Assembly (NCBI GenBank): GCA_951406725.2
Contig: OX597832.1
Location: 16,988,001 to 17,052,000, forward strand
Direction: 5' to 3'
DNA: 64,000 nt
DNA from: Octopus vulgaris
Taxonomy: Eukaryota
Shown here: positions 12,576-47,903 of the stretch, piece after piece
Numbering within the stretch: the first letter of the stretch is position 1
Layout: every line of letters begins with the position of its first letter
Made by a program: the position numbers and the translations under genes
The notes under the pieces: generated by a model
Seen by the model: only the letters and a program-made list of their open reading frames with translations
Databases searched by the model: none
What the model was told of the DNA's origin: nothing

Positions 12576-13152
12576 TATTTCTTTATTGCTCACAAAGCGC
12601 TAAACATAGAGGGGACCAGCAAGGAGAGACGGATTAAGTCGATTACATCGACCCCAATACGTTGCTGGTACTTAATTTATTAACCCCAAAAGGAGGAAAG
12701 GCATAGTCGACCTCGGCGGGATTTGAAATCAAAACCTAACGGCAGACGAAATACCTATTTCTATTTCTTTTCTACCACAAGGGGCTAAACACAGAGAAGA
12801 CAAGCAAGGACAGACAAACGGATTAAGTCAATTATATCGACTCCAGTGCGTAACTGGTACTTAAGTTATCGACGCAGAAAGGATGAAAGCAACGTCGACC
12901 TCGGCGGAATGAAATACCTATTTCTTTTCTACCCACAAGGGGCTAAACACAGAGAGGACAAACAAGGACAGAGAAACGGATTAAATCGATTATATCGACA
13001 TCAATGCGTAACTGGTACTTATTTAATCGGCCCCGAAAGGATGAAAGGCAAAGTCGACCTCGGCGGAATTAGAACTCAGTACACAACAGCAGATGAAATG
13101 CCGCTAAGCATTTAGCCCGGTGTGCTAACGTTTCTGCCAGCTCACCACCTTA
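12576..13152 (-). mobile_element. Tandem array of three tail-A SINE units with a single 5' head
   Basis: Junctions gaaatacc|tatttc at 12755/12756 and 12918/12919. Head only at the right end. Confidence 0.9.
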
Positions 13153-14012
13153 GGCGTTTCTGATCATGAGCAGGAGTGGTTGGGGAGCATCATAGACATA
13201 TATTGAGAGGAATTCTTTGCGGATTACATAAATGTAACCAAAGTAAAATTCAAAGGGAATATTAGCCATTTTTAATACTTACTTATGGTAAGCAAATAGG
13301 AACGAACAGTTGCTACAGAAATACAAAAATCTTGTTATGCGGTGTAATTCAAGGCAATAATTTCAAAATTGCACAAAGGACACAGAATTGAAAAGGTGAA
13401 CACTCTACGTAAGAGAATTTCAGTGATTAATTGTTAATTGCTTTTACTGACGCTCCAACAAAACCAAAATTGTTCTCAGTGGTTTTTAATTCCGAACATA
13501 AAATGAACATAAAATATATTGACACGTTTTCTTCATCGCTCTACTAAATCTGCTAATCCTCTGTGTACTTGTCTTGTTCTGGAAGTGCTAGCAATGATTC
13601 TTGTTTTTTTCTTTGATATATAAGACACTGAATGATTAATCATTAACCTTTAGGGGATTTCAGTTTTACATGTGACTTCTTTATTTGGAAAACTAACTAA
13701 AACGAAGATTAGGTCGCTTTTAAGACGTCCAGTGATAGCATGGAATTATTACGGCTACGTACACAAACCGGCATACATACATATCTAACAGGCATTCACA
13801 TATAAACAGATACACGTTTGAATATACCACCTGCATATTCACATACTTTTAACCATATAAAAACGTTGGTATACACTTGCACACATATGTGATCATATGC
13901 TTATACACACGAATTAATATATACACTTACAAATGTATACACAACCATGTACATGAATAAATACATACGGGAATATATATTTATTCACCCGAAGATGGTA
14001 AATACATTATCA

Positions 14013-14402
14013 TTTTTACTATAGACACAAGGCTTGAATGTTTGGGGGCGGGTGTCAGTCGATTAGATTGACCATAGTGTTTAACTGCTACTTAATTTAT
14101 CGACGCCGAAAGATTCAAAGGCAAATTCGACCTCGGCGGATTTTGAACTCAGAACGGAGCGATGGGCGAAATACCTATTTCTTTACTACCCACAAGGGGC
14201 TAAACACAGAGGGGACAAACAAGGACAGACAAACGGACTAAGTTGATTATATCGACCCCAGTGCGAAACTGGTACTTAATTTATCGACCCCGAAAGAAGG
14301 ATGAAAGGCAAAGTCGACCTCGGCGGAATTGGAACTCAGAACGAAACGGCAGACGACTAAGCATTTCGCTCGGCGCGCAAACGATTCTGCCAGTTTGTCG
14401 CC
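14013..14402 (-). mobile_element. Chimeric SINE dimer (tail-A unit joined into a tail-B SINE)
   Basis: Junction gaaatacc|tatttc at 14175/14176. The left unit has a different tail (ttttactatagacacaaggcttgaatgtttggggg). Confidence 0.85.
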
Positions 14403-16269
14403 TTTTAAATATCTATTTCTACTCTAGAGATATTGAAGAGTACCCCTGTCAATTGCCGTTTTCTTTTTACGTATCTCCATAACACGGTACCTGTGTACCT
14501 GTGTACCGGAAAGATACTTCAGCGTCCAATGATACGGATTCTATCTTAGAGAGGTACCTAAGTATACCGTACAGATCACTCAGTTATTATCAGTGAAACC
14601 GATCATCTTTAATTGTGGATACCGTACACTTATGTCTCTCTACTAATCTAATGTGCTCTATCGATATATGATCTGAATAACCTCTTACGTTTGAACCATA
14701 TTCACATTGGAACATTCCTTCTGTTATACAGTCCGAAACCGATGAATTGGTATATGAGACTTTTTTACTCTCTATTACTTGGGGGTCAACAAAATGTCTC
14801 TACCCTACATATAAATGTCGGAACAACAGGACTAAACTTTTGGGGTGCGCAAACATGTTCCCAAATCAGCTGTTGGTCAGTGACAATCACTAGTCATTAG
14901 GTGCAGTCATTATTGCTCTTTACATGTAGTACTAGGGACTCAGCAAATGCATCGTGAAAATTCACTGTACCTCTTCATCCAAACCTTTCTTGGGACAGCA
15001 CAGCTATTTTCTCGCCTGATTGCGATGGACGACTTTATGTCAATATTTTGTACTTTTCAAAACTGCGCGCGTGTGCGTACGCTTACAAAATTGTTTTAAT
15101 GAATGAGATTGCTAGGTAAGTGACTTGGCTTCCTAAATGTTCCCAGAATATGTACGTTTATTCTGAATGAGGCTATATGTGTTGGAGAAGAAACACAGAT
15201 TGTACCCACGACTTGGTCTTTAATATATATTATCCGGTCTTTGCCTTAAAACCACCAAAGCAGCTAGAAGTTTGAGCATTACAGTAAGCGGCTGACGCTA
15301 TAGATTTTAGCTATGTTTTGCAGACCAATTCCTCTGTTTCTTTCTATTTGGCCGCCACTTTGTCTGCATATCTTTTTCTCATATACCGGACCAATTCAGT
15401 TTTATATAACGGTGTTCATAACGTGTGCGTGTGTATATGTGTGTGTATGTGCGCGTGTGTATGTGTCTGTTTGTGTGTGCGCTTGCCTGCTTGCAGTTAC
15501 TGTTGGATTTGTTAAAATTCTTGTTAGAATTTTTGAAGTTCATTGTGATAGTAATGCGTTTATCTGTTAATGGTGCTGATGTAATTTGCGATTTTATTAT
15601 TTTTTGCTATCTTCATGTCATTTTGGCGCCTGTGCTTGTTGTGACATTTTTGTTGATATTTTAATTAAAAACTGTTTATTTGTTGTTGAATATGGACATT
15701 GGATTCTTTCTTTTCTGGCTCCTGACTTGAAACTTTTCGTCTCTCTCAGAAAAGAAATTATCTTTCTTTAGTATTCCCCCTTGCTAGAACCAGATCTACA
15801 TGTATTCGTTAAAAAAGTTTAACAATTTTTGTGTTACTACATTCACAGAAATATACTCCAAAGATCACAATCACTTATGAAGAAACACATATATGTACGT
15901 GGATTGTGATACATGGCCTTTATACAAATCATTGTGATACATGGCTTTTCTGCACATTAGATGGTACCAATAAACCTGCGGTCACTTCTACCGAGACATT
16001 TGTAGACAAACACAGGCAACTGACGGTTCAATAACAGTCCCCTTGACCCTCTCTTCAAGATTAATCCAAATTTTCCCTCATCAAATAACTGGCCTATCGT
16101 TGTCTGCACCAAGGAAATGGTCCGAGTTAAAAGTCCCACTCCTTGCAATACGCACGACAGATACTGATTGAAACCAATCAGATATGCTGTAGTTACAACA
16201 TTTCCACATAAACATATACATATTCACATGAGCACATACAAATCAGAATATATACACAAAGAAATTCAC

Positions 16270-16490
16270 GGATCTTTACCTTTTGACCGGCAGATTTAGA
16301 AAATAATTTTTAGTCACTAAACACTTTCAAACTTCGGACACTGGTAGAATGTGTCATATAAAACATTTTTTACTCCTAGCATTTTTGAGAAAAATTTATA
16401 TATGACATATTCTACCAGTATACGAAGTTTGAAAGTGTTTAGTTACAGAAAAATTATTTTCTAAATCTGCCGGTCAAAGGTTAAAGATCC
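16270..16490. mobile_element. MITE, ~100-bp imperfect TIRs starting GGATCTTT, 8-bp TSD
   Basis: ggatctttaccttttgaccggcagatttagaaaataa... / ...ttattttctaaatctgccggtcaaaggttaaagatcc. TSD aaattcac at 16262-16269 and 16491-16498. Confidence 0.9.
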
Positions 16491-16624
16491 AAATTCACTT
16501 AACCCTATTCAGGTCTGAGGAATCAGAAGAAAGCTGGCGTGGATTATAATGAATTGAACATAAAATTACATAACTTATGTCTACACTGTAAATAGTATTG
16601 TCTTCTGTAATTCTACAATTTCAG

Positions 16625-16657
16625 CATACATATATACATACATACACAAACACGTAT

Positions 16658-16709
<52 letters not shown>

Positions 16710-17032
16710 GCATATTCATATATCCAAATATTAATATGTGTAGGAACGTGTTATATGTATGTACATGTATATCTATATTTATATACGTGTCTACATACAT
16801 ATATACATGTGCGTGTGTGTCTGTGAGTATGTGTGTGCGTGTGTACATAGCCATGTGCATGCGTGTTAATATGTGTGTTTCTGTGTGAAAATAGACACAT
16901 ATATTTGCTGTATAGCTGATAAAAAATTTGGCTGACGTGTAATGTTTTAGCTGATTCAGAGACAAGATCAATATCTTTCATAAATATAACATTAAAAAAA
17001 TGATCACAATTAACAAGAATCAAAACCAAAGC

Positions 17033-17091
<59 letters not shown>

Positions 17092-17112
17092 TGTATATAT
17101 ATAGATACATAT

Positions 17113-17159
<47 letters not shown>

Positions 17160-17176
17160 GTGTGTCTATATATATA

Positions 17177-17214
<38 letters not shown>

Positions 17215-17234
17215 TATGTATACATATATATATG

Positions 17235-17314
<80 letters not shown>

Positions 17315-17925
17315 GTCATATATTTCAATAAAATAGATTGTTTCTGTACAAGCGCTTCTTTTCTTTCTTTTCATGTACAAGAACTTTGAGTTAGAGAACC
17401 ATTCGGAACTGTATAGTTATCCCTAAAAGTGTATCATATTTTAGGTATTCAATAACCAAACTGATTTCTCAACACAACTTATCTAATGTCATAGAAAGAA
17501 GAACAATACTTTATATCGAGTAAACAAATCTATTTCCAGTTATCTTTTATTTATATATGTGTTTATTTATATAGATTTATTTATATTGCATTTAACTTCT
17601 TTCTTTATTTATTTTTCTCTCTCTCTCTCTCTGAAAGTACTGTCTACTTAATGTATATCTGAATTTCTATGTAAGTGTATGGAGGACTATAACTATCATA
17701 TAAATAGTATTATCTAAATAGATATATTGGGACATATGTGTGTATACGTATGTCTGACTCTGTGTGCGTGTGTGTGTGCTGTGTACATATGTATACACAC
17801 GTATGTATATATGAATATGTGTATGTATACAGATATATAAACATACACACACACATTCATACATATATATATATATATATATATGTATGTATATATATGT
17901 ATATATATATAAATATATATATACA

Positions 17926-17968
<43 letters not shown>

Positions 17969-18030
17969 ATATATATATACAATATATATATATGTATGTA
18001 TGTACATATATACATATACATATATAGATA
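16625..18030. repeat. (TA)n/(TG)n microsatellite zone
   Basis: Directly visible. Confidence 0.9.
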
Positions 18031-19141
18031 TATTGTTTTAATGAACATGATTATTAATATAAAAATTATCCAATAGAAGTCATCGGTCCTTGTCTTTTGG
18101 AAAAGATAATACTGTATCGGAAACTTTCTATTCTTATTCTACTATATATACAGAGGGAGAGAGAGAGAGGGTAACGAATATTCTCTAATAATAATGGGCT
18201 ACAAGAGGTTGATATTTCTACTGATTTGCATATTGTCAGCTGTTGGCAGATGTACTTTCCACAAAGTTTGCTAAGCAGTGTAAATTGGTGTAAGAACTGG
18301 CATCCTCTACAATCTAAGGAGCGAACTGTCATGAAGAAAATTCCTGTATTAGAAGTTACTTATCTTTACCATCACGGTTGCCCAGCGCAATAAACACCTT
18401 CCTATATATGTCTGTTTGTTATTTGTAGTTACGCACATTTGTCAATGATGTTAGAGGTGATCAAAGTTAGATAGCAATGATGTCTTCTGTCCAAATATCT
18501 AATCATTGAAATATAACGGCTAGTAGAAAATATCAAGTTGTTTTTGCAACACGGAATCTATGATACCCAGCAAAGCCTACCAGCTCTCTGTTATGAAAAA
18601 TATACTATTATGCGAATTCCTTATTATCACACGAATTTAAAGAGATACAGTAAAATATTTCGCCCAACGCACTCACTGCTCTGTCACTTTACTCACTTCA
18701 TTGATTCTACCTAAAGTTGACAAAATAATGCAGATGTTCAATCCACTGCATTGGAGTCTGGTCTTCTTTTATGTATTTGTTCAGTATTAAATGACTCAGA
18801 GAAATATGAACCTGGCTCTTATATTCATTGAAGAATTAATTCCAGCACCATTCATTTGATGTTACCTTACCTTCATGTGTCTCCTCAGTTCTTTGCGGAT
18901 TTATAACAGCAACATTGTGAATACATTTGACCGCCATTAATCTTCAGTTTTGACCAAAACAGATTATTCCCAAAAGAGTACCCAATTCCAAATATTAGGT
19001 TGGTATTTTATTTATTGATGTCTAAAGGAAATGCTGAATTCAGCTAGGTTTGAACGTAGCCCGTAGAGAAGTGAAAAGAATACTGCTCGTGTTATTTTTC
19101 TTTGAGAAGTGGCTAACTTACCTGTCTATTGGTCCACATTG

Positions 19142-19537
19142 TTTTTCTAATTTAGGTACAAGGTCCGAAATTTTGGGGGAAGTGGTGAGCAGTAGATTAG
19201 ATCGACCCTAGTACGCAACTGGTACATAATTTATCGACCCCGAAAGGATAAGAGGCAAAGTCGACCTTGGCGGAATTTGAACTCTGAACGTAAAAATAGA
19301 CAAAATACCTATTTCCTTACTACCCACAATGGGCTAAAAACAGAGAGGACAAACAATGACAGACAAACGGACCAAGCCGATAATATCGACCCCAGTGCGT
19401 AACTGGTACTTATGCAATCGATCCCGAAAGATGAAAGGCAACGTCGACCTCGGCGGAATTTGAACTCAGAACGTAGCGGCAGACGAAATACGGCTACGCA
19501 TTTTGCCCGGCATGTTAACGTTTCTGCCAGCTTACCT
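19142..19537 (-). mobile_element. Chimeric SINE dimer (tail-A unit in tail-B SINE)
   Basis: Junction aaaatacc|tatttc at 19309/19310. Confidence 0.85.
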
Positions 19538-19570
19538 CATTAAAGATAGTATTTACTGAAGGGTCTTTTG

Positions 19571-19952
19571 TTTTCTACTCTAGGCACAATGCCCAAAATT
19601 TTTTAGGGGAGGTCCAGTCGATTAGAACGACTCTAGTATGCAACTGGTACTTAATTTATCGGCCCCAAATGGATGAAAGTCAAAGTCGTCCTCGGTGGAA
19701 TTTGAACTCAGAACGTAGCGGCAGACGAAACACCTATATCGTTACTACTCACAAGGGGCTAAACACAGAGAGGACAAACGGATTAAGTCGATTATATCGA
19801 CCCCAGTGCGTAACTGGTACTTAATTTATCGACCCCGAAAGGATGAAAGGCAAAGTCGACTTCGTCGGAATTTGAACTCAGAACGTAGCGGAAGACGAAA
19901 CAACGCTAAGCATTTCGACCGGCGTTCTAACGATTCTGCCAGCTCGCCGCCT
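19571..19952 (-). mobile_element. Chimeric SINE dimer (tail-A unit in tail-B SINE)
   Basis: Junction gaaacacc|tatatc at 19734/19735. Left tail ttttctactctaggcacaatgcccaaaatttttagggg. Confidence 0.85.
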
Positions 19953-20883
19953 TCCAACCTCACCAGTATCATCAACTATCTGTCCTCTCATCGATAGAAT
20001 ATTTAGCTGGTTATAGAGAACAGCAGAAAAACAAGTCAAGAAGAAACACCAAAATCTCTATATCACAGATTATTGTTGTTGATAGTGTTACAGAAATGTT
20101 AGGATGTTATAGTGTTGGAAAATTCAGCAAAACTAAAAAAGAAAAAAAATTATAAACTATGAAAATTCCGATGGAAATTACAAAGAAATATTATACACAT
20201 ATTGTCAACGTAGATCTTATTTTGGAGATCTAGTAAATACAATTATCGATCGGCTAATCTTATAAAAATTTAACAGATTGAAAAATGATTAAACATATTC
20301 TAGAGGTGCGCCAGGTACGACATATCTCAAAGTTGCATCGAATTTGTATCTTAGATCCACATTTCTAAATTTTTCTTTCACAACATTCAGAGTACGCAAT
20401 AGATAATCTCATAACACTAGATATAAGTTAACTTAAATAATTGAATAGTATATCATCAAAATGTTGCGTACAGCAGCCAAGATGAACGCTGTGTGACACT
20501 ATTCTTATCATTCTGTCTGTAAATTGAAGCGCTTTTCTACTGAACAGCAAGATATGACTTCATTTTTCTGAGGTAGATGCAGCATCGTCTTTTGGGAGTA
20601 TACGATAATATTTGTTTGTTACACCTTTGTCATTTGGTTCAGTATCATTAAATTAATTAGTTGCGTGATGAATATTTTTCGTATATATTGTGTATTGGGT
20701 GATAATTTTAGGTGGCATCTTCGTAGATTATGGGAAATGAGGTTTTGTGTTATACTATCAAGTTTGAAATTTCTATGGTCCGTGTGTTGTGCTATTATGG
20801 ATTATGTACTATACGATTTGAATACTGTTTGAATTTTACTATGTTAACTAGGAGGTGATTATTTAGAGCTATATACTGCAGTG

Positions 20884-21115
20884 TGGAGGCGCGTGGATTA
20901 GTGGTTAGGGTGTCAGCATCATGATCGAAAGATTGTGGCTTCGATTCCTGGACCGGGCAACGCGTTGTGTTCTTGAGCAAAACACTTCATCTCACGTTGC
21001 TCCAGTCCACTCAGCTGGCAAAAATGAGTAACGCTGCAATGGACTGGCGTCCCGTCCAGCTGGGGGAAACAGAGCCCATGAGCTTGGCTAGGATTTAAAA
21101 GGGTGCATTTATTTA
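20884..21115 (+). mobile_element. tRNA-derived SINE
   Basis: Head ggaggcgcgtggattagtggttagggtgtcag...gcttcgattcc followed by gttcttgagcaaaacactt core. Confidence 0.75.
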
Positions 21116-21333
21116 TTTTATATAGAACAGTGTATTATTCATGGGATTTATTTCCATGTCTGTGTGTGTGTGTTTGTTATAGTGGTCCGTGATTGAAAAT
21201 TCAACAAAAAGGTACACCATCTGGTGAGAGATAGGATTTATTTATTTAAAGGGTACAATACATGTGTTTAAGCTTTTTAATACAGGTATTGTGACTTTTA
21301 AATAAATAAATAATACGCATACGCAAACACACA

Positions 21334-21436
<103 letters not shown>

Positions 21437-21792
21437 TTATGTATATATGTATGTGTGTGTTTGTGTATGTCTCAAGGTGTATTATAATCTCTTGAAACAT
21501 GGCCGTACCTCAGTGGAGAGCGGGGTGCGTTAAGGTACGTTTTCCAGAATCTAAAACGAGGAGACGATTGAGAAAGTTCGGCGAATAGTCATGAGAGATC
21601 GGTATTTTTCCGCCAACCAGCCACCATGCTTGATCGCTAAATCCACAGGGTTTTTTTTTTTAATCTCTCTCTGTGTATTTTCTCCTATGCCTTTCTACGG
21701 AACATCGTAGGCTCGAAACTTAAAATACTTTCTCACTTTCCCGAGCATCAAACTGATACACCTGCTTGCTGTTCATATATATATATATATAG

Positions 21793-22250: not shown

Positions 22251-22418
22251 TGTTTCTCTTATTTTTTATATGCTCAGCAGACACTGTGGAATTCCTGAAG
22301 CAGATCCAATAGCATCTGTATTAATAAAGCAGACGAGTTCAGGTAGCCATATGCTGTGAAAGTGTTTTAATCGGCATACTACCAGATGTATACCAAGGTG
22401 TAGATATCTATGTACTTG

Positions 22419-22452
<34 letters not shown>

Positions 22453-22453
22453 C

Positions 22454-28411: not shown

Positions 28412-28642
28412 GGCGGCGAGCTGGCAGAAACGTTAGCACACCGGGCGAAATGCGTAGCCGTATTTCCTCTGCCGTTACGTTCTGAGTTCAAATTCATCCG
28501 AGGTCGACTTTGCCTTTCAACCTTTCGGGGTCGATAAATAAAGTACCAGTTATGCACTGAGGTCGATGTAATCGACTTAATCCATTCGTCTGTCCTTGTT
28601 CGTCCCCTCTGTGTTTAGCCCCTTGTGAGTAGTAAAGAAATA
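28412..28642 (+). mobile_element. Solo full-length tail-A SINE with 15-bp TSD
   Basis: TSD tatcttctacctaca at 28392-28406 and 28643-28657. Confidence 0.9.
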
Positions 28643-30399: not shown

Positions 30400-31072
30400 T
30401 CCTGGTTTCAAATGGCTAGCTATTACAGGGAGGGTGTCCAGTTGATTACAACGATCCCAGTGATTCATTGGTATTTATCTAATCGATCCCGGAAGGATGA
30501 AAAGCAAAGTCGAGCTCGGCAGAATTTGAATTCAGAGCATAAGGACAGACGAAATACCGATAAATATTTTGCCAGGTGTTCTAATGACGCCGAAAGGATG
30601 AAAGGCAAAGTAGACCTCGGTGGAATTTGAACTCAGAACGTAGCGGCAGACAAAATACCTATTTCTTTACTACCCACAAGGGGCTATCTTCAGAGAGGAC
30701 AAATAAGGACAGACAAACGGATTAAGTCGATTATATAGACCCCCGTGCGTAACTGCTACTTATTTAATCGACCCCGAAAGAATGAAAGGCAAAGTCGACC
30801 TCGGCGGAATTTGAAATCAGAACGTAGCGGCAGACGAAATACCTATTTCTTTACTACCCACAAGAGGCTAAACACAGATATGACAAACAAGGACAGACAT
30901 AGGTATTAAGTCGATTACATCGACCCCAGTGCGTAACTGGTACCTAATTTATCGACCCCGAAAGGATGAAAGGCAAAGTCGACCTCGGCGGAATTTGAAC
31001 TCACAACGTAACGCAGACGAAATACCGCTAAGCATTTCGCCCGGCGCGCCAACGTTTCTGCTAGCTCGCTGC
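30400..31072 (-). mobile_element. SINE cluster: old copy plus a partial unit plus two tail-A units
   Basis: Junctions at 30659/30660 and 30843/30844, spaced 184 bp. Confidence 0.85.
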
Positions 31073-32803
31073 TTCTGTCCAAGCTATAATAATAAGAAGC
31101 AAAAATGCAGTTCGTATTATTTGCTCCACTCCGTAATATCTGTTTATGAGCAACCATTATAGCTGCAGTAACAAGTAACAACAGCAGTAAATGAAACAAT
31201 GGCAATCAATATCGAAAACAACTCTGGATATTACAACGAAGGATTAGTGAAACAAAAAGATGTTGAATAAAAAGATAATCTAGCTGTTGTTATAGCTGAA
31301 ATGATCAAAGCATGAAATTCTGCATCTTAGAATGACAAACGTAAGAGAGCTTTGTGCTTTGGGAGTTCACCTCGCAGCTCAAATTATAATCTCGTTTCAC
31401 GTCTAAGCTGATGGAAAATTTCAAGGTAATGCCTATCACATATAACAGTCCTCCGTGAACTGTAAAGTTTGATAGATATAGAAAGGAGAAAATCCATAAA
31501 ATCCAGCAAGTTGGAACGTTCTGTCTCCAAGTCCTGCAGCTGAAATGAAGTTGATTTTGAGAAGGAAAAAGTGAAACAATGGCAGTTGAGCAAATTTATA
31601 TACACAAGTGGCCGGAATGAGAAATTGAAATTAAATTAGATTGTGTTGCGTATAATATAGTAGTGATGGAATGAGAGAGACTCGAGAGTATCTACATCTC
31701 AGCTTGAACACTGCTAGCAATCTACACAATGCTAATGAAATTCTTTGACTGCCATTGCTGGAAAACTTTCTTCATGCTCATATAAAACTTTTTTTAAATC
31801 TATTTGACGTCGAATGTTGTTTGATTTAGAAGCTGGCATTGCAGCCACATGGTTTCTGGTTCAACCTCATCCCGTTACGCTTGGAACAAGTTTCATTTTC
31901 CATAGTATGTGTATATGAATACACACGCGCGCACGTATGTATATACATACATAAGTTCATACCTACATATATTCTGCCTAAATAAATGGATGTACAAGTG
32001 CAATATCTTTACATAACTTACATCCATTTTCTTTTATCTCCTCCACCTCACTTTTTATTTCATATCTCATCTAAATTAACTTTTTCTTAACCATCCTCTC
32101 ACACCGTCTCCGATGAAGGGATATAATAAATATCCTGGAATCAACTGTAAGACCTTCCATCTATAAATCTTCTAAAATCTACACAGCCTTGGTTTTTTTT
32201 AATCTCATTGCGAAAAAAAAAATTATATATATATAAAACAAATGATAAAGATGGAAAATGGAATGCATGAGAAATTTTATTGCTCATAACGTTCGTTTCG
32301 ACACATCTTGCTTCGATCACTCGCGGGTGGGTAACTATGCAACTAGTTGTGGTGCATCCTGCGGTGCGGAAGCGTCTCGTCAGGTGATTTGATAATTGTT
32401 TTATACTCAACGTACACAAAAGAATTCTTGGGGGTAGATCCAGCTACATCTGTGTAATTACCGTAGATGACGTCGTGTACTCGTTTTACTAGGAACTTAA
32501 ATATGTTTGTGTGTATGTGTGAGTGTGTGAGGGTATAGCTCACAGGTTTCCAAGGAACTGAATACTGATTGAGTTCTATTTTAGACACGGGTGTGAAAGT
32601 GACATATATGGTAATCTTTATTTTATAGGCACAAAGGGATAATATATATTCAAGCAGTTTGAGAGGAGAGTCATTTCAACCATAAACTACGTTTAACATA
32701 TTTTATTCAATTATCGACCGAGGAATGATAAACGGCAAATTCGAGCGTAGTATACAAAAATACCTAAGCTATATAGCGCAATGATAATTTTCTGACTTTT
32801 TTG

Positions 32804-38480: not shown

Positions 38481-39611
38481 CACACTTAAAGTTTCATTTC
38501 TACAGACAAACGAATAATACTTGCTGCTAAAAAGTTCTTTATGAATTCAAAAAGTACACAGGTTCTGATAAGGTTCTGATCTAAACACATTTCTAAGCCA
38601 CAGAATCGATAGGAATTTAACCACTATGGTGTCAAGTAATGTGTAAAGAAAGGATAAAGCAATAGAAAATAAGATTAATGCTCGTTTAAACGTAAGTCAT
38701 GAAGAAGTACTCTTGTTCATGCCAAAAGTGTGACAGTACATTATTTCCAACCTATCGATGTAACTACCATTTCGTGATGCAATGTCCAGGAAAAGAAATC
38801 GATTCAAACTGAAACTGTCTATCACTTGAAAAAATAATTTACTGCATTGAATTCGAAATCCATTTTCCGAATTTGGCTATTACGGTAGAACCACCAAGTA
38901 GAGATTTTTGCTTCAAGAATGAATTGAGTTTCAGAAAAAAAAAATACAGAAAGTATGTACGAAAATTTAAAATGATTTTACAGCACAATACTTCTGAAAT
39001 CCATCTACAATGGAATAATTTTGGACGGACTTGTACTCTAAGTTTACACTCTCTCAGCGGATGCATTAAGATTTTTTTCCCATTTGCATCGACTTACGTA
39101 AGTTAAAGTAGATTTTCTTGCTTGATACAAATCACATTCAATAAGAGGGATTATCTTGCAGTTGGAAGTGATATTTGTTGTATACCTTTCAAGTACCAAG
39201 TCAAACATTGAAGAAACTCTAGTCAGTGGCAAAACAATTTAAAGAGCGCCAACTCTTAATAACACAGTTAAAGCAGACATCTCACACGCAAGAGCAAGTT
39301 CGTGTTGTTTTATCATGAAGAGGTTTAACAAATAAAATTTCATGTGTTCTATTTTTCACGTAAAAGTTTCAGCAAAAATTTAGATATATATATATATATA
39401 TATATAGTAAATACGAAAAGTAATTTCTGTGTGTCAGTGTGTCACACACGACCCCACTCTCTCACTATTCATTCAAATCGTTTCCGTCATTTACTACCAC
39501 TTGACGGTCGTGCCTTGCACCCCGATCACGCCTCGCCAATGTAGAACACCACCTCTTCAAATACCTGTGGAGGGGACAGTTTCCATTGGTGAGACGGTCC
39601 ATCTACTGCCA

Positions 39612-39842
39612 GGCGGCGAGCTGGCAGAAACGTTAGCACGCTGGGTGAAATGCTTAGCGATATTTCGTCTGCCGTTACGTTCTGAGTTCAAATTCCGCCG
39701 AGGTCGACTTTGCCTTTCATCCTTTCGGGGTCGATAAATTAAATACCAGTTACGCACTGGGGTCGATATAATCGACTTAATCCGTTTGTCTGTCCTTGTT
39801 TGTCATATCTGTGTTTAGCGCCTTGTGGGTAGTAAAGAAACA
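39612..39842 (+). mobile_element. Solo full-length tail-A SINE with 17-bp TSD
   Basis: TSD ggtccatctactgccag at 39596-39612 and 39843-39859. Confidence 0.9.
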
Positions 39843-39879
39843 GGTCCATCTACTGCCAGCACCCTCTACACGGAGGGCT

Positions 39880-41190
39880 GAGCATACCAAAACTAATGAT
39901 ATGCATACGAGAAATAAGCGCAGAAAAAGCTAAGCGCATGAAAATCCGTGCTAAACTGCTGCCTTAGATATTCTGACTGATGAATGGCAAGAAAAACCTC
40001 TCAATGGCAAATACCAAAAGAGACCGAATAATGCCGATGTTGACAAAGCCCTGATCCATCAATGGCTAATGGCCTCTGGCTTAAAATCTGAAATAGAAGG
40101 CTTTATCATAGCAGCTCAAGATCAATGCCTACATACAAGAAACTACCAGATCAACATATTAAAGAACGTCAGTAGCCCAACATGTCGTGTATGTCAAATA
40201 CAAAATGAAACCATTGATCATGCTGTCTCCAAGTGCAGTCTTCTTGCGCCTACAGAGTACCTCAAAAGGCATGATAGAGCTGCACAATATAATCACTGGG
40301 TAATTTGCAAAAGCCTGGACTTGCCACATGATAAAAACTGATGGGAACACAAACCACCTGCAGTGCTTGAAAATGATCCTCTCTCACTCTTCTGGAACTT
40401 CACCATTCAAACAGACAGAAAGATAGATGCAAATAGGCCAGATTTGGTTTTGTATTTAGTGTTGTACTAGAGAATGCATTGGTATTGCTAGGTAGCAGTC
40501 AGCTCCTTTTGCTATCATTCTCAGGGAACCTATAATAACAGGTATTGTTTTAGTCTTCAGGTTCCACATTTTGCTAATTTCTATTTCAAAATCTTTAAAT
40601 TTCCCCAGGTTTTGGTAGGGCTTGACAGATAGGTTTATATCGTTTGGGACAGTCATATCAATGAGGAGGCATGGTATTTGCTATCATCAGGAAACCCCAA
40701 ATCATATTGAAAGACTTCAGACAAATACCATGCCTCCTCATTGATATGACTGTCCCAAACGATATAAACCTATCTGTCAAGCCCTACCAAAACCTGGGGA
40801 AATTTTAAGATTTTGAAATAGAAATTAGCAAAATGTGGAACCTGAAGACTAAAACAATACCTGTTATTATAGGTTCCCTGAGAATGATAGCAAAAGGAGC
40901 TGACTGCTACCTAGCTCAGATACCAGGAAACCCCAAAATGACAGAAATTCAAAAGATAGTGCTCATGGGAACTGCTCATATCCTACGCAAAATACTTTCT
41001 GTGTAATCTCAAGGTTTAAAACACATAATTTTCGTATGGTTTTTTTAGGCATTCTCTAGTACAACACTAAATACAAAACCAAATATATGGCACACTAGGC
41101 ATAACAACAACATGAACTTCCAACCTGTTGTCTCTTGAGGTATCTGGGTGAGACTTGGAGCCAACTTATGCAAATGTAAAGCAAAAGTCT
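39880..41190 (+). mobile_element. 5'-truncated R4/Dong-like non-LTR element (CCHC + restriction-like endonuclease region, 3' UTR)
   Basis: WQEKPLNGKY, EIEGFIIAAQDQ, CRVC...ETIDHAVSKC, YLKRHD, LFWNFTIQTDRKIDANRPD and LIDMTVP motifs. Contains stops and an internal rearrangement. Confidence 0.85.
40487..40915. repeat. 194-bp inverted duplication inside the R4-like element
   Basis: 40487-40680 is the reverse complement of 40722-40915 (one mismatch seen). Confidence 0.9.
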
Positions 41191-41231
41191 ATTCGAAATC
41201 TAGTTTGTTTTCAACATTTTGGTGTTGTTAA

Positions 41232-41447
41232 AGCGTCGAGCTGGCAGAAACGTTAGCATGCCGGGCTGAATGCTTAGCGGTATTTCGTCTGCTGTTACGT
41301 TCTGAGTTCAAATTCCGCCGAGATCGACTTTACTTTTCGTCCTTTCGGGCTTGATAAATTTAAGTATCTGCTGCGTACTGGGGTTGATCTTATCGACTGG
41401 TCCTCTCCACAATATTTTCGGGTCTTGTGACTAGCGGTAGAAAATAT
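41232..41447 (+). mobile_element. Tail-B SINE, uninterrupted
   Basis: Full head and core; tail ttttcgggtcttgtgactagcggtagaaaata. Confidence 0.8.
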
Positions 41448-42049
41448 TACGTTCGGCTTTGTTCGACTTTGCTACCATCATTTCGGGGTCAATTAAGTAA
41501 GTACCAGTTGAATATTATTAGTGGCGTTGTAACTATAGTAGAAGGCGTTATACTTGGTATTGCTATTTTTGTATTGTTTCTTTATTTCTTCTTTTCTCTG
41601 GGTTTTTTGTTAGTTTGTTTGTTTGTTTGTTTTTTTACTTTTCTAACAGCTTTCACCTTTTCAGCTATTGTTAGATTTCGTGTATGTTCCAACAATCTTC
41701 AGTTGTAATAGAAATCCAATACAAAAGAGAAGGAAGGAAAAAAGCAATGGTGAGAATGGAAGGGATAGGAGGCGGAGGCGGGGGAGAGAGAGGAGAGGCA
41801 GGAGGAGGAATAGTTTTCTTTTGAAGTATTTTCATTTTATTTAGTAGCAAGTGTTTTGGTATAATTTCATATTTCTTTTCATTAAAACTCAAGAAATAGA
41901 GATTTTTATTCTCTTTTAGTGTCTACTAATCTCTGCTTTGTTATTAGTAATAACCATTGTAGTCATTGTTATCGTTGTCGATCCTCTTGCTGATGTCGTT
42001 GTTGTTGCTGTCATTGCGGTTGTTTATGGTTCATATCTTATAACGTCCA

Positions 42050-42148
42050 CTATGATGATGAGTCTGATTGCACCTAGATAATAGTGATGATGATGACGAT
42101 GATGATGATGATAATAATAATAATAAGATGATAATGATGATGATGCTG

Positions 42149-42180
<32 letters not shown>

Positions 42181-42329
42181 AATAATAATAATGATAATAA
42201 TAATAATAATAATAATAATATGATGATGATGATGATGATGGTGACGACGAGGTTGACGATATATACGATGACAATCAAGACGATAATAAGGACGACGGTT
42301 ATGATGATGGCAACGATGACGACAACGAA

Positions 42330-42364
<35 letters not shown>

Positions 42365-42440
42365 CGATGATGATGATGATGATGAGGGTGATGGTGACGA
42401 CGACGACGACGACGACCAACATGATAATGATAATGATTTG
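42050..42440. repeat. (GAT/AAT/GAC)n trinucleotide low-complexity tract
   Basis: Directly visible. Confidence 0.95.
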
Positions 42441-42752
42441 TTATATGTTTGAAAAATAAAAAAAATAAGAGAAATGACCATGATACTAATTTTGTCATGA
42501 TCATAATTAGTAAATACGATGGTGATGATGATGTTGATAATGTTGTTATGATTGTCTTTTTGTTTTCTCTATTTCACTTCCGAAATCTGTGCTTCATTAA
42601 CGAACAAAATACTGAATTATTTACAGCGATATCTCTTTCGTAATAAATTATGCCGAATTCCTTCCATTAAATTCATTTTTTTACTTTGATTTAGAATTGA
42701 CAAGAGTTTATGCCATTGTTTGCACAAACTTATATATATATACAATTATGCA

Positions 42753-42939
42753 TAATTATTAAAATTATAATTTAGGGTATCTAAGAGATACCACCACGCT
42801 TGAAATAGCAGTTAAAACTTGATTCTAAAACCACATTAAAAGTTTTAATTTTTTATTGTGTTTTTAGAGTCAAGTCTTGGCTGCTATTTCAAGCGTGGTT
42901 GTATCTCTTAGATACCCTAAATTATAATTTTAATAATTA
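42753..42939. repeat. ~187-bp imperfect palindrome
   Basis: taattattaaaattataatttagggtatctaagagatac... / ...gtatctcttagataccctaaattataattttaataatta. Confidence 0.9.
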
Positions 42940-43094
42940 CTACCTTTGAAGGCTTTTATTCCCTTGCAGGCCACTTGATAAGTTCGAAAATTATATAACG
43001 ATCTTATCCTTATTTATATAAAATGATGCATATGTATATATAATTTTCAATGTATCTATATGACGAAAAATATATATATATATATATATATATT

Positions 43095-43428
43095 TTTACC
43101 CCCTTCGGTCAGACACTGACCATGGGTTTGCACCTAGAGAGTTACCCTCTGAGGCACAAGTCTGGGCAAGGTTGTTTTATGGACGACCAGCAGTCGCCCA
43201 TGCATACCGGTCTCCCCTCTCCACGTCACGGATGTTGTCCAAGGGAAAGGCAAGGGCCGATACAGCTTGGCACCTGTGACGTCGCAACTCATTTCTACAG
43301 CTGAGTGAACTGGAGCAACGTGAAATAAAGTATCTTGCTCAAGAATACAACACGCAGTCCGGTCCGGGATTCGAGCTCACAACCTCACGATCGTAAGTTC
43401 GACGCTCTAACCACTGAGCCACGCGCCA

Positions 43429-43430
<2 letters not shown>
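43095..43430 (-). mobile_element. tRNA-derived SINE (homologous to 55745-56070, plus)
   Basis: Head tggcgcgtggctcagtggttagagcgtcgaac...gttcgaatcc-like; shared body with 55745-56070. Confidence 0.75.
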
Positions 43431-43504
<74 letters not shown>

Positions 43505-43612
43505 CAGTAATAATATAGGGTGAAATATGGTTATTAATTACTATTAATGATCATATATATATATATATAGTTTGTGTCTGAAAGTACGACCGTGTCTTGG
43601 CTACACTGATAA

Positions 43613-43655
<43 letters not shown>

Positions 43656-43693
43656 TGTGTGTACCACACACATACACACTCAAATATGCATAC

Positions 43694-43759
<66 letters not shown>

Positions 43760-44536
43760 TTCTTATACAACGATGTTGTATGGTTTGGAAATTGAAAGGT
43801 TTGCTGGTGAACATCGGTTCGAAATGTACGTCAATTATTTTTATCGTAGAAAATTCACTTATGTTTGATATTAGCGAAAGTAAATGGACTACCAAAGAAA
43901 AACCGTTTGTTCCAAACCGCCACTATAAATTAAGAAATACTGTTTTTAGATGGATGTACCTCTTGAGACAAGGTCCTTCATTAGCGGACGAGGTAACCTA
44001 ATGAATATGAAACTTACTTTGAGAATACTGAGTAGCAGAGTGCATTGTCGTACTTAGTTAAATCAATTTACGCTATATGTTTAAATAACGCCGAGATTGC
44101 CTTTGACTTTCTTTCTTCAGGCTTCGTTGGAATAACTATTATTCAATTACTGATGTCAGCTTAATCGATTAAGCGGTTTTCTCAAAATTCGTGGCTTCTG
44201 TGACCTGTATAAGAAGTGAATTATGAAACTTAACGGCGGAAGATGGCGCATTTGTTAGAGCGCCTGGCAAAATGTTTCAGTGTGTTTCCTTACGTAAAGT
44301 TCTAAGCTCAAATACTCAGTGTCGTAAGCGTCTATCATTATTCTCTCCTTCCTTCTATATCTATAACATATTAACCAGTCAAAAATGTGTGTCGATATAA
44401 TTAATGATACACTCTACGTCGAAATAAGAGAACTGTCTCTTTGCTTACTTTTGTTTCAAGTATGCTTATTACCATAATTGTTTTTCGATTTTTATTATAT
44501 AATTCTAAGTTCTTTGGCCACCGGAGTTAAAACCAA

Positions 44537-44590
44537 GCAGTTGTCGTTCTGACGACGGCTATTGCGCCAGAAACACGTCTCCGCAACTGC
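44537..44590 (+). ncRNA. Degenerate minimal hammerhead-like motif
   Basis: gcagttg...CTGACGA-c-ggc tattgc gcc-a-GAAACACGTC...caactgc. Confidence 0.4.
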
Positions 44591-45234
44591 CTTCTTATCG
44601 CCAGACACTCAGCTTGTCTTTATCCTTAACGATATGTCATTTATGGAAAATCCTTGGCTTTTGAGTTTATTTTCCCCTTCTCATGATTATGATGAATCCT
44701 TTGAAGTCAGAGATTACTTCAATAAATCAAGAATTTATGTTCTATGTTATTAAGCACAGTTTTATTCGTCTTTGTTACGGTATAGTTATTAATACAAATT
44801 AATTTATGTATTCATATATTGCTAGAATCTACCTTGCTTTCGCTGCACCTGCCTAGAGCCAATATCGAATATGTGTCGGTCTACTCGAGTGTTTAAACTT
44901 GCTTAACTTAACAGTTAATTAAGAGACATATTTATAAACAAGACCAATAATCATTTAATATTCCAACTCTGCGTCACGTCTTACAATGGATTAAATCATT
45001 GATGTAAGACACCAACTAAAAGGTCGCTGCAAGAAGTCTAAAACCTGCCAGAAATAGTAGTTAAATGACCCTGTAATCAACCTATACTTTCTCTACAAAC
45101 CTGAGAAGGATTGGTTAGAAAATTTGTGATGCTGAATGCGCAGTGCTTAAAAATATGAGGAGGTGGAGACCATCATAACCATAACAGCTTTGGTCATAAG
45201 TCTACTCGTACTCTTTCAAGTACGTTTTAGCTGA

Positions 45235-45279
<45 letters not shown>

Positions 45280-45361
45280 CAATAATAAATCTCTGAACGA
45301 GTGGCTTTTCTTCACTGGAAATATATGTATTTGCATTGGGACCCCTTCGCATCGAAGACCA

Positions 45362-45420
45362 GTGATTGTCGTGCTCTGACGACGGGTAAATATTCAGAAA
45401 CCCGGGTCCGTGCGTATCAC
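45362..45420 (+). ncRNA. Minimal type-I hammerhead-ribozyme-like motif
   Basis: CTGACGA-c-gggt aaat attc-a-GAAAC CCGG GTC, with palindromic stem III and outer gtgat/atcac pairing. Stem I is imperfect. Confidence 0.5.
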
Positions 45421-45597
45421 ATCAGGTCGACAATGGGAAGGATAGCTTAGCTTTGCAAATACTGACAGGGCACAGAAAGTGTGTCAATAGCCAGCTGGAG
45501 AAGATGTTCTCCTGGGGCTACAAGCTAAAGTAGCATCCACACTTAGTGGTTAGCAACAATTATGTGGCAAATATACTTCACACTAACACACACACAC

Positions 45598-45646
<49 letters not shown>

Positions 45647-45656
45647 CATACATACA

Positions 45657-45724
<68 letters not shown>

Positions 45725-46539
45725 CACCACTAACGCCAACACCAACACCTGCCCAACACTATCCTTATCGTCACCATCGTCGGCATCCTCGCAACCGCCA
45801 TCATCTTTCAAGTATAAAACAGCCGTGATGAAACACTACTGCAATCAATAATTTCAAGTAGAACGACTGACTGTTATTTCTAAGATGCTGTTTGTTCTTA
45901 AACTTTAGATGTGACTTAAAACGATAAGGATTTGTTTTCTTTTATGAGGAGTGTAAACGTCATAACATATTCATTCCTACAGTGTCATGACTTAAAACCT
46001 TTGTACGTATTTTTTTTTGTAATTCCTATTGTTATTCCATTTATTTATTTATTTATTTATTTATCGATCTGCGTCCAAATACTTTAGTTGATCTGAATAT
46101 AATTGGCAATATGATTTCGACTCATAGTGTCAGATATTTCACTGCAGTTTTTCTTTTCTTTTTCTGCCTTGAGCCCTGGGGCTCATAAGGTCACCCGTTA
46201 ACGGACGCCAGTCCATTGCAGATAACAAGGGAGGCAATTTCCGAGGGGAAACAAATTGTTTTCAAACGCCTCAGTATTTGAGTGGTATTCTATTTTATCG
46301 AACTCGAAGTGATGAAAGGCAAATTTGGCGGTTGGATTTGAACTAAAATCGTAAATACATAGGAAGTGAGGGATTCTGCTAAGGATTTTCGCCGACGTCC
46401 TAACACTTCTGCCATTTCGCCGACTTTAGTTTAATTACTGTTGCTTAGTTTATTTGAGATCTCTTCAAAAACAATTCATTTTTTTACTTTTTGTGTTTAT
46501 GAGATACAAATATTTCTTTTTATATCATAATTTACTGGT

Positions 46540-46870
46540 GTGGAGGTGAAATGGCCCAGTGGTTATGGCAGCAGAATGGTGTTTGTAGGATCGCGGTTTT
46601 GATTCACAGACCGGGCGTTGTGAGTGATTATTGAGCGAAAACACCTAGTTTAACGAGGCTCCGGCAGGAGGTGCTGGTGAACCATGCTATATTCTTTCAC
46701 TGCATCTTTCTCTCATTGTTTCTGATGTACCTGTATATCAAAGGGCCAGCCTTGTCACACTCTATGTCACGCTGCATCTTCCCGAGAACTTAGACGTTAA
46801 TTTCACGAGCAGGCTGTTCCGTTCAACGGATCAACTGGAACCCTCTTCGTCGTAACCGACGGAGTGCCAC
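46540..46870 (+). mobile_element. Third-family-related SINE
   Basis: Reverse-complement homology to 28768-29150. Confidence 0.8.
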
Positions 46871-46978
46871 AAATTTATTGGTATCAAAGTTTGGCACAAG
46901 GCCACCGATTTCGGGGCGTGGGGTGGATTAGATTGATTGCATCGACCCCCAAGCTTCAAATGGTATTTATTTTATCGC

Positions 46979-47206
46979 GGTGAGCTGGCAGAATCGTTAG
47001 CACGCCGGGCAAAATGCGTAGCCGTATTTCGTCTGCCGTTACGTTCTGAGTTCAAATTCTGCCGAGGTCGACTTTGCCTTTTATCCTTTCGGGGTCGATT
47101 GATTAAGTACCAGTTGCGCACAGGGGTCGATGTAATTGACTTGATCCGTTTGTCTGTCCTTGTTTGTCCTCTCTGTGTTTGGCCCCTTGTGGGTAGTAAA
47201 GAAATA
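46979..47206 (+). mobile_element. Tail-A SINE nested antisense in an older related SINE (host ~46878-47335, minus)
   Basis: TSD ggtatttattttatcgc at 46962-46978 and 47207-47223. Confidence 0.9.
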
Positions 47207-47535
47207 GGTATTTATTTTATCGCCTCAAAAGGCGAAGTCGAACCGGGCGGCATTAGATATCAGAACGTTATGTCGGAGGGAATGCTGTTAAGCATTTGTC
47301 CGGTACAGTAACAATTCTGCCAGCTCGCAGCCCCATTAATGTGTCGTAGTTTTTAGACAAACGTTGTGATGTTGCTGGTGTAGTACAACCTAGAAAATCC
47401 GTGATTGGTTTCGATTCACATACAGAGCAATTTCGTTTTCCCATATTACGTTTATGCTTTTATGAAGGCATAAATATCTCGCTATCCTATTGTGTTACGC
47501 ATATCAAGTTTAAGCCAATTTTTTACGTACATATA

Positions 47536-47903
47536 TATTTCTTTACTACCCACAAGGGGCTAAACACAGAGGGGACACACAAGGACAGACAAAAGGATTA
47601 AGTCGATTACATCGCCGCCAGTTCGTAACTGGTACTTAATTTATCGACCCCGAAAAGATGAAAGGCAAAGTCGACCTCGGCGGAATTTGAACTCGTAACG
47701 TAACGACAGACGAAATACCTATTTCTTTACTACCCACAAGGGGCTAAGCAGAGAGGGGACAAACAAGGACAGACAAAGGGATTAAGTCGATTACATTGAC
47801 CCCAGTGCGTAACTGGTACTTAATTTATCGACCCCGAAAGGATGAAATGCAAAGTCGACCTCGGCGGAATTTGAACTCGGAACGTAACGACAGACAAAAT
47901 ACG
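47536..47903 (-). mobile_element. Two headless 184-bp SINE units (tail type A) downstream of the LINE
   Basis: Units start at 47536 and 47720 (tatttctttactacccacaagggg...gacgaaatacc). They contain a B box (gagttcaaattcc on minus) and a core gactttgcctttcatcctttcggggtcgataaa resembling the Meta/MESC SINE domain. Confidence 0.9.

Follow-up and report, generated by a model that had tools for sequence, protein, structure and literature searches.

We propose, with a probability of about 0.7, that the head-to-tail SINE arrays described here are explained by a LINE lineage that targets the SINE head, by replacement of that head in place, and then by local duplication. Tens of thousands of head-to-tail joints apparently seed satellite-like arrays. 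The window referred to below is the whole stretch of 64,000 nucleotides of Octopus vulgaris DNA that was analysed.

SINE-A and the junction at position 48

The repeat, here called SINE-A, has a consensus of 231 nt and a tRNA-like head. It is short, non-coding and present in high copy number, an exact 23-mer from its tail occurring 63,092 times in the genome. Copies are flanked by target site duplications (TSDs) of 10–20 bp, and the 3' tail matches the 3' end of a LINE (see below) at 28 of 34 nt. A regular expression based on the consensus of the Pol III A and B boxes identified A-box-like and B-box-like motifs in the head. ARAGORN and Rfam gave no match for the head, and its fold is no better than that of shuffled sequences (z −0.87). 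Octopus SINEs include OK as well as OR1 and OR2. The last two have been classed as CORE-SINEs (PMC4824008, PMC5804259). Three monomers in the window have TSDs:

28412..28642, plus strand: SINE-A monomer with a 15-bp TSD starting TAT
39612..39842, plus strand: SINE-A monomer with a 17-bp TSD starting GGT
46976..47206, plus strand: SINE-A monomer with a 17-bp TSD starting GGTATTT, antisense within an older SINE

Six arrays were found, in three of which the last unit belongs to a second SINE family, recognised by its B tail:

12576..13149, minus strand: trimer; head and A unit 13149-12919, A unit 12918-12756, older A unit 12755-12576
14005..14403, minus strand: dimer; young A unit 14403-14176, joint at position 48, B body and tail; lower end approximate
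19140..19540, minus strand: dimer; A unit with the G43/C48 head variant 19540-19310, G48 joint, B body and tail; lower end approximate
19575..19951, minus strand: dimer; A unit 19951-19735, joint at position 48, B body and tail; lower end approximate
30586..31073, minus strand: trimer; A units 31073-30844 and 30843-30660, third unit ending at 30586 against an older copy
47536..47903, minus strand: two A units, 47903-47720 and 47719-47536, the first parted from its own head by the LINE

An earlier note on this DNA had reported eight tail-to-head junctions, at 12755, 12918, 14175, 19309, 19734, 30659, 30843 and 47719, with a period of 184 bp. All eight are real, lie on the minus strand and resume at position 48 of the SINE consensus. 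The unit is 184 bp long because the consensus has 231 nt and the junction is at position 48, and TRF independently finds a period of 184 at 30582-31026 and 47536-47938. Of the junctions in the window, just two, those at 30843 and 47719, have the exact 24-mer across them; substitutions or small indels are present in the remaining six. The unit that follows 12918, which is the middle unit of its trimer (12918-12756), has an internal deletion, is short by about 25 nt and carries an extra GAAATA ahead of the 12755 junction. Genome-wide the 24-mer has 26,764 exact copies, compared to none for a reversed control, and the junctions are therefore not due to chance.

The site is also fixed. In an unbiased sample consisting of the window and twenty 10-kb stretches, 41 A-type tails were followed by position 48 in 23 cases (six of them scored by eye, having an extra GAAATA or a deletion), by position 15 in two, by non-SINE DNA in 16, and by no other SINE position. 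The claim that each array has one head and no leftover partial head is correct in that no leftover precedes the five arrays that begin with a SINE head, but 47536-47903 has no adjacent head at all.

Within the window, the units of the trimer at 12576..13149 have, in order, 5/74, 5/63 and 11/74 mismatches at positions 65–140; the dimer at 14005..14403 has 2/74 in A vs 8/74 in B, and that at 19575..19951 has 2/74 vs 6/74. Units 1 and 2 of the trimer at 30586..31073 differ at 21 of 156 sites. In the dimer at 19140..19540, position 48 is not the same upstream (C48) and downstream (G48).

Contigs of four runs were compared with 18100-21300. None of those listed spans the arrays, SINE contigs from elsewhere swamp the joints, and no allele predating an insertion was seen. 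One contig of organism C enters the head at 19895-19934, with about ten more mismatches than a second contig that ends at 19934; it was not counted as evidence.

Insertion into older elements and the surviving head

Insertion into older hosts is supported by several observations. Target-primed reverse transcription at a fixed site in existing SINE heads had been suggested, and intermediates bearing TSDs are indeed seen: there are 66 non-seamless insertions consisting of the host site, 0–14 nt and a new head. Among 30 such footprints examined, 22 retain the host head and the duplication, with the same site after the tail, and six of these 22 lie within an older junction. The array terminus belongs to the older, B-tailed family in 48 of 133 arrays, a share that rests on samples; these, like the others used here, come mostly from contig C1 and were partly picked by exact motifs. 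That non-terminal units are never B is true by construction in the array sample; the real test is what follows B tails, and position 48 follows only twice, against 6,561 B tails.

The expectation that 5' units are the younger ones is likewise confirmed, the first unit being 4.4% diverged and the last B unit 7.9% (n = 47, Wilcoxon p = 5e-5). B tails in arrays are not rejuvenated (7.9% vs 7.5%). A B-type TSD is present in 27 of 57 B-ended arrays, in 18 of 44 B monomers and in no decoys. TSD mismatch is 10.6–12.0% for B-ended arrays, 9.1–11.1% for B monomers and 4.4–8.7% for young monomers, a difference in age that is significant only with windows of 10 and 11 nt (p = 0.023 and 0.035), the values at 12 and 13 nt being p = 0.14 and 0.30, and p = 0.09 in another test. 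Low-complexity TSD candidates were left out, as were loci L081–L110 (picked for leftover heads) from the head and TSD statistics; L336 and L340 are apparently one duplicated locus.

The earlier note had the cDNA joining and keeping the host head, so that even a truncated cDNA would be completed by it. The data contradict this: over positions 1–63, B-ended arrays carry young, A-type heads, and it is the incoming head that survives. Across 54 such arrays, positions 1–6, 7–14, 15–25, 26–36 and 49–60 resemble young monomers and not B monomers (p from 0.04 to 8e-8), while positions 37–47 do not separate the classes (p = 0.28). A B signature at 61–64 is found in one of the 54 first units, compared with 25 of 44 B monomers, and the G43/C48 variant in 13 of the 54 heads but in none of the 44. 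Mismatches at positions 1–14 number 91/741 in B-ended arrays, 58/420 in young monomers and 133/614 in B monomers. A leftover host piece with its TSD remains in one of 81 arrays. Host mutations shared between adjacent units, used as a test for a host-derived duplication in seamless arrays, show no enrichment at positions 48–63 compared to elsewhere. A complete 5' head is present in 113 of 133 arrays, and the sharing tests omit the other 20.

The proposal that adjacent units are not each other's closest kin applies to dimers but not to arrays of four or more units. Adjacent pairs in dimers differ on average by 10.2%, compared to 10.1% for random pairs, and only 3 of 25 dimer pairs and 6 of 39 trimer pairs lie below the 1% quantile of the distances between random pairs. 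In arrays of at least four units, 24 of 45 adjacent A-A pairs fall below that quantile, and local duplication is thus shown to extend these arrays. The head region itself slips, as seen in an 8-copy run of 64 bp on contig C10 and in a doubled head in locus L086.

The LINE with the same tail and target

The earlier note overlooked a likely cause, a partner-like LINE with the same target and tail, which lies in the window next to one of the arrays:

47904..53259, minus strand: full-length L1/Tx1-like LINE, 5,356 bp, inserted at SINE position 48
51566..52609, minus strand: LINE ORF1, stop-to-stop, 347 aa, with a weak CCHC zinc-knuckle match (PF00098, E 5.5e-5)
48151..51557, minus strand: LINE ORF2, with AP-type endonuclease (PF03372) and reverse transcriptase (PF00078) at 48738-51557
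53260..53322, minus strand: host SINE head, positions 1–63, G43/C48 variant

The head of the array at 47536-47903 thus sits 5.36 kb away, at 53260-53322, with the LINE in between, and the LINE is surrounded by an exact 16-bp duplication (53275-53260 = 47903-47888). Two ORFs, with an AP endonuclease and a reverse transcriptase in ORF2, are the arrangement of the L1 group, and all eight PDB matches of the endonuclease are of L1 ORF2p type. The last 139 codons of ORF2 (48151-48570) are in a separate frame in this copy. From its features we take the LINE to be Tx1-like; in protein searches, neither the 39 homologues nor the cluster members or Atlas matches included a named Tx1 reference.

A further 39 copies were selected by their 3' UTR alone. 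In 38 of these the LINE tail is followed by position 48 of the SINE (34 clean, four with deletions or short matches), which is target-sequence specificity of the Tx1 type. The 5' end is directly preceded by the host head in 18 of 20 copies checked, and these heads are 3.7% diverged, compared to 0.9% for the LINE body. The two 16-nt repeats are often unequal, chiefly at position 61, so the length of the duplication is uncertain. The SINE burst is older than this LINE family, whose copies end in T, not A, and which uses C48; for these reasons the family is a relative of the mobiliser rather than a demonstrated mobiliser.

The two elements use different alleles of the target. The young SINE tail joins G48 23,606 times and C48 214 times, whereas the LINE joins C48 in all but one of the 39 copies; in the sequences this split hints that the RNA may pair with the target by read-through. 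There is also a second site, at position 15, which is used by an older subfamily and which the earlier note missed: the old tail prefers position 15 to 48 (1,475 vs 545), and the young tail position 48 to 15 (23,606 vs 161). No run of four T occurs across the junction. B hosts that were hit are less diverged at positions 65–90 (6.9% vs 10.3%, p = 9e-4), with no lower divergence at 91–140. A hairpin of the inverted repeat GAAATA-GG-TATTTC was rejected as a targeting rule, tail complementarity being at most about 5 nt at unique sites.

Proposed mechanism, alternatives and related systems

We suggest that an L1/Tx1-like LINE lineage would mobilise SINE-A through the common 3' tail, cutting between positions 47 and 48 of a tRNA-like head common to several SINE families, with a second cut some 13–17 nt further on. 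The LINE inserts conventionally and leaves the host head upstream, as shown above, because it has no homology to the head. The SINE-A cDNA, primed at position 48, would run to position 1, pair with the homologous host head and then replace it; the replacement is observed, and the strand-level steps are our reconstruction. The product would be a new head, a new body and the old headless body, all within the TSD of the old element. Since both the new head and every junction restore the target, the step could repeat, adding 184 bp each time; arrays of four or more units then often lengthen by local duplication, as shown above. The retrotransposition route to arrays in the earlier note thus stands as regards fixed-site insertion; it does not as regards the kept host head, and long arrays grow also by duplication.

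Because no run of four T crosses the junction, Pol III transcripts of array copies should read into the target, and this extension probably pairs with the nicked strand and thereby sets the exact site and the allele. More tentatively, and at somewhat less than even odds, the SINE RNA may be a natural prime-editing template, whose read-through 3' end would anneal to the nicked strand and determine the allele, with the body serving as the insert and the head as a homology arm overwriting the host promoter. The choice of target would be inherited via the flank of the source, a self-reinforcing loop that would have moved the site from position 15 to 48, and the G43/C48 variant would have escaped SINE self-insertion and then become the target of the young LINE.

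It is unlikely that the arrays derive from multimer RNAs, that is, from a few conventional sources whose read-through transcripts were re-inserted elsewhere via the last tail, seamless and with a young head. Such RNAs account equally well for the young head, the absent leftover and the B-type TSD, and they fit the lack of a T4 terminator. Terminal B units moreover share rare mutations slightly above background (9/2,211 pairs vs 5/4,344, p = 0.02), which would be expected if array RNAs re-transposed to some extent. However, the TSDs of B-ended arrays look B-aged and the B tails are not rejuvenated; the terminal B units are star-like (pair mean 16.4%, 9.1% to the consensus, nearest neighbour at least 8.1%, n = 50); terminal tails of B, D and old-A type would each require their own active partner; and the LINE shows highly specific targeting of position 48 in place.

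That the seamless joint retains the host head is largely refuted as the main route by heads that are young over 1–36 and 49–64, and is very improbable also in view of the G43/C48 heads and of mutation sharing that is not concentrated in 48–63. The LINE does retain the host head, and the single first unit with a B signature suggests that SINE-A may do so rarely. We give hardly any credence to a conventional insertion with TSD followed by deletion between two heads 65 bp apart, for which the 66 conventional forms and the slips of the head could be cited, since crossovers across 1–63 would leave positions 1–14 mostly of host origin, and they are young. Local tandem duplication or unequal crossing-over, as proposed for the squamate SINE-derived satellites (sSat), is refuted as the origin of the arrays and has only a very slim chance in that role: dimers and trimers contain few close pairs and the dimer mean equals the random one, A-B and A-D arrays cannot be duplications, and a single fixed breakpoint at thousands of loci would be unexpected. 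The close pairs in longer arrays do argue for it, as a second stage.

The closest known systems are SINEU/Tx1-Mar and sSat. In the crocodilian SINEU-3/Tx1-Mar, as far as the account in PMC4494074 goes, a SINE likewise prefers the same target as a Tx1 LINE and often lies in tandem at the rebuilt site, but that target is Mariner-N4_AMi and tandem copies sandwich a TSD. SINE-A targets its own head, joins it seamlessly and replaces the head of the host; TSD-separated copies at an unrelated target are not the pattern here, as the single leftover among 81 arrays indicates. Tx1L, Keno, Kibi and Koshi of the Tx1 clade, in the summary given in PMC4494074, are also AP-endonuclease LINEs with a fixed multicopy-repeat target, whereas the target of the window LINE is allele-specific and is the head of a SINE bearing the tail of the LINE. 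The sSat, as presented in PMC10702118, consist of partial units in tandem, of which one terminal unit is longer, as SINE-A arrays do, and long arrays are more homogeneous; homogeneity from local duplication is seen here in roughly half of the pairs from longer arrays and not in dimers or trimers. They are explained there mainly by duplication and unequal recombination, with same-locus insertion mentioned in passing, unlike SINE-A, where seeding is by targeted retrotransposition and families are mixed. Rodent B2 and Dip also form head-to-tail multimers, up to 49% of copies, but of full-length units and of an origin that the authors, in the account in PMC8466645, leave open. SINE-A units are headless, with a fixed internal start. 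In R2, joining by 5' homology occurs, as cited in PMC4494074. As described in PMC6795142, the target sequence that R2 RNA bears by read-through at its 3' end anneals and improves accuracy, and a co-transcribed target strengthens targeting. R2 is autonomous, with a restriction-like endonuclease and an rDNA target, while in the SINE-A system the SINE itself supplies the homology on both sides. No description of a self-targeting SINE system was found in the literature searched, which included few subscription journals and Repbase reports; the target of the LINE could be described in a supplement or in Repbase.

The system offers a concrete, testable path from dispersed SINEs to satellite-like arrays, a connection so far credited mainly to recombination. 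A LINE with a sharp, allele-specific repeat target and a natural, non-autonomous, scar-free cargo would be of interest for work on site-specific retrotransposons. If the proposal is true, SINE-A can substitute its own promoter in place for those of older SINE families, and consequently the age of a head would not date its locus and repeat-age landscapes would here be distorted.

Junctions at a fixed position of the SINE head

The main repeat, SINE-A, is 231 nt long (consensus built from 95 copies), and all positions below are those of its consensus. SINE-B has positions 1–160 in common with it, save five sites, and differs in the tail; a third tail type, D, is rarer than either. SINE-A tails occur in a young form (GTAGT) and an old form (GCAAT). 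OK is a family name used for octopus SINEs. Exact tail 23-mers number 63,092 genome-wide, all genome counts covering the 2.80-Gb assembly.

The eight junctions claimed in the earlier note are all present, and each is a SINE-A tail joined directly to position 48 of the next SINE, giving 184-bp units. The 24-mer quoted for them is exact at two, the other six having no exact match. Genome-wide, the exact junction 24-mer occurs 26,764 times, against 0 for the reversed control. In an unbiased sample of 41 A tails, 23 lead into position 48, two into position 15 and 16 into other DNA; the junction position shows no scatter. A long array at G000:C1:4676270-4677965 has ten exact junctions in succession, spaced by about 185 bp.

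A LINE at the same site

The window contains a LINE inserted at SINE position 48:
47904-53259, minus strand: L1/Tx1-like LINE, 5,356 bp, directly preceding the array at 47536-47903

Its ORF1 gives a weak CCHC match and its ORF2 encodes an AP endonuclease and RT, with the PDB matches to the endonuclease all L1-type. Protein searches with the LINE returned no named Tx1 reference, and its placement in the Tx1 clade is putative. The last 34 nt are identical to the A tail at 28 positions. A host SINE head (positions 1–63) lies upstream, and an exact 16-bp repeat flanks the LINE.

Searched with the 3' end of the LINE, 40 of 405 candidates scored 93–100% identity; exact LINE-type tails number 507. 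In 38 of 39 other copies SINE position 48 directly follows the LINE tail, the first base past the tail being C, also in 38 of 39. The LINE follows directly on the host head at 18 of the 20 5' ends expected, and G43/C48 is present in 16 of the 17 heads that could be read. These heads are host-aged (3.7% divergence), while the LINE is young (0.9%). The fixed site is thus a property of a LINE lineage, one that has its tail in common with the SINE.

Non-SINE repeats with a similar tail occur at the sampled loci L032 (minus strand, 9362), L264 (plus, 2239), L093 (plus, 1467) and L227 (minus, 435). They sit at different targets, namely TATC-like repeats, position 15 of the SINE and, with G, its position 48, and they may be sister LINE families, each with its own specificity. 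At window 39955-40341 (plus strand) a 128-aa open frame with a weak zf-RVT match resembles the C-terminal piece of another LINE, of R4/Dong-like type.

Origin and growth of the arrays

Older elements serve as hosts for the arrays: among 133 arrays the end is B in 48, D in 6, old A in 29, young or unclear A in 34, a truncated unit in 15 and a locus edge in one. The opposite order hardly occurs, since of 6,561 exact B tails two lead into position 48. The earlier note inferred that the host head is kept; against this, the heads of 54 B-ended arrays match young and not B monomers.

Mismatch by head position in 54 B-ended arrays, young monomers and B monomers
Positions; B-ended arrays; young monomers; B monomers
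1–6; 15.9%; 21.1%; 31.1%
7–14; 9.6%; 8.3%; 14.6%
15–25; 3.5%; 3.4%; 7.7%
26–36; 11.3%; 13.1%; 23.8%
49–60; 5.3%; 7.3%; 9.6%

Positions 37–47 do not discriminate between young and B heads in these 54 arrays. The B signature at 61–64 is found in 1 of 54 first units vs 25 of 44 B monomers, and G43/C48 in 13 of 54 array heads vs none of 44 B monomers. A B-type TSD surrounds 27 of 57 B-ended arrays and 18 of 44 B monomers, and no decoys. A young head thus lies inside a B-type TSD, and therefore the whole head was supplied by the incoming copy. In the G43/C48 variant (from T43/G48) a U-G pair becomes G-C at the base of a predicted hairpin loop beside the cut site.

We consider in-place insertion with head replacement to be the probable route (about 0.72). 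If a deletion between two heads had come after the insertion, positions 1–14 would still be of host origin, but the array heads are young there. It is improbable that multimer RNA, re-inserted via the B tail, was the main route, although the product would look similar and shared rare mutations are in slight excess (9 of 2,211 vs 5 of 4,344 pairs, p=0.02). Against it, the terminal B units show a star-like pattern, the B tails within arrays are no fresher (7.9% vs 7.5%), and TSD mismatch in B-ended arrays (10.6–12.0%) is nearer to that of B monomers (9.1–11.1%) than of young monomers (4.4–8.7%), a difference that reaches significance for 10 nt (p=0.023) and 11 nt (p=0.035) and not for 12 or 13.

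Insertion with a duplication also occurs. The pattern of host site followed by a new head is present at 66 places, and at 22 of 30 examined the same site and then the host body come after a complete new SINE, with a duplication of about 13–17 bp. In six of these 22 an older junction had served as the host site, and junctions are therefore re-usable as targets. The duplication-bearing form is rare, making up 1 of 81 headed arrays in a sample not selected for it. Two head-only tandem runs have apparently grown from conventional insertions: G000:C10:17996023-17996506 (64-bp period, 8 matches) and C13:69036075-69036321 (69-bp period, 4 matches).

The suggestion that 5' units are younger applies to B-ended arrays, where last B units diverge by 7.9% vs 4.4% for first units (n=47; 35 higher, 10 lower; p=5e-5; compared over positions 65–140, where the consensus is common to A and B), and not to old-A-ended arrays, whose first and last units do not differ (n=29, p=0.2). 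In dimers, adjacent A units are no closer than random pairs (10.2% vs 10.1% apart; 3 of 25 pairs close). In arrays of at least four units 24 of 45 adjacent pairs are close, and local duplication is therefore a real second stage. Tandems of other types were also seen: six B-tail matches at 101-bp spacing in a B-derived tandem (G000:C1:15779648-15780176), and whole B copies head to tail with short spacers, unlike the position-48 arrays, at L011, L175, L185, L188 and L251.

Target guidance and related systems

Past the young tail at non-SINE sites, the next bases are G, G, T, A and T in 43, 39, 47, 51 and 40 of 62 cases, and they form part of the TSD; past the old tail, the next base is A in 14 of 19. 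Genome 27-mers join the young tail to position 48 in 23,606 cases and to position 15 in 161, and the old tail in 545 and 1,475 respectively (odds ratio of tail form against target position about 400). Young tails lead into C48 only 214 times, though 10 of 30 young monomers have the G43/C48 head. The B hosts hit are nearer consensus at 65–90 (6.9% vs 10.3%, p=9e-4), not beyond, and an A-type base at 63 is weakly enriched in them (p=0.07).

No four-T terminator is present in the A consensus or across the junction. At the junctions at window 19309 and 30659, decay of a CpG has produced a four-T run just past the tail that may act as a Pol III terminator. At L021 (about 1454-1511) two tail-to-tail SINE-A copies are each followed by a short position-48 sequence, possibly a read-through remnant.

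For the SINE RNA an analogy can be drawn with prime editing: a read-through RNA would anneal to the target. The target and allele data fit such annealing; LINE endonucleases that succeeded one another with different targets would account for them just as well, and other repeats with a similar tail do lie at other targets. For R2Ol, annealing of read-through RNA to the target has been demonstrated (PMC6795142).

SINEU-3 takes on the preference of Tx1-Mar, whose target is a Mariner element, and its tandem copies enclose a TSD (PMC4494074), whereas the target of SINE-A is the SINE's own head; squamate sSats share the outline of the SINE-A arrays but differ in attributed origin, being ascribed mainly to duplication (PMC10702118); and rodent SINE multimers, their origin left open, consist of full-length units, unlike the position-48 arrays (PMC8466645). 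Passages matching the search terms in two octopus repeat papers, one of them PMC13282606, do not mention the system, and no published description was found in the literature searched, subscription journals and Repbase reports being mostly outside its coverage.

The feature is real and extends across the genome: the head of the SINE is itself the target of the SINE's partner-like LINE. Seamless head replacement seeds the 184-bp arrays, which local duplication later lengthens, and the system is a variation on known target-specific SINE/LINE pairs.
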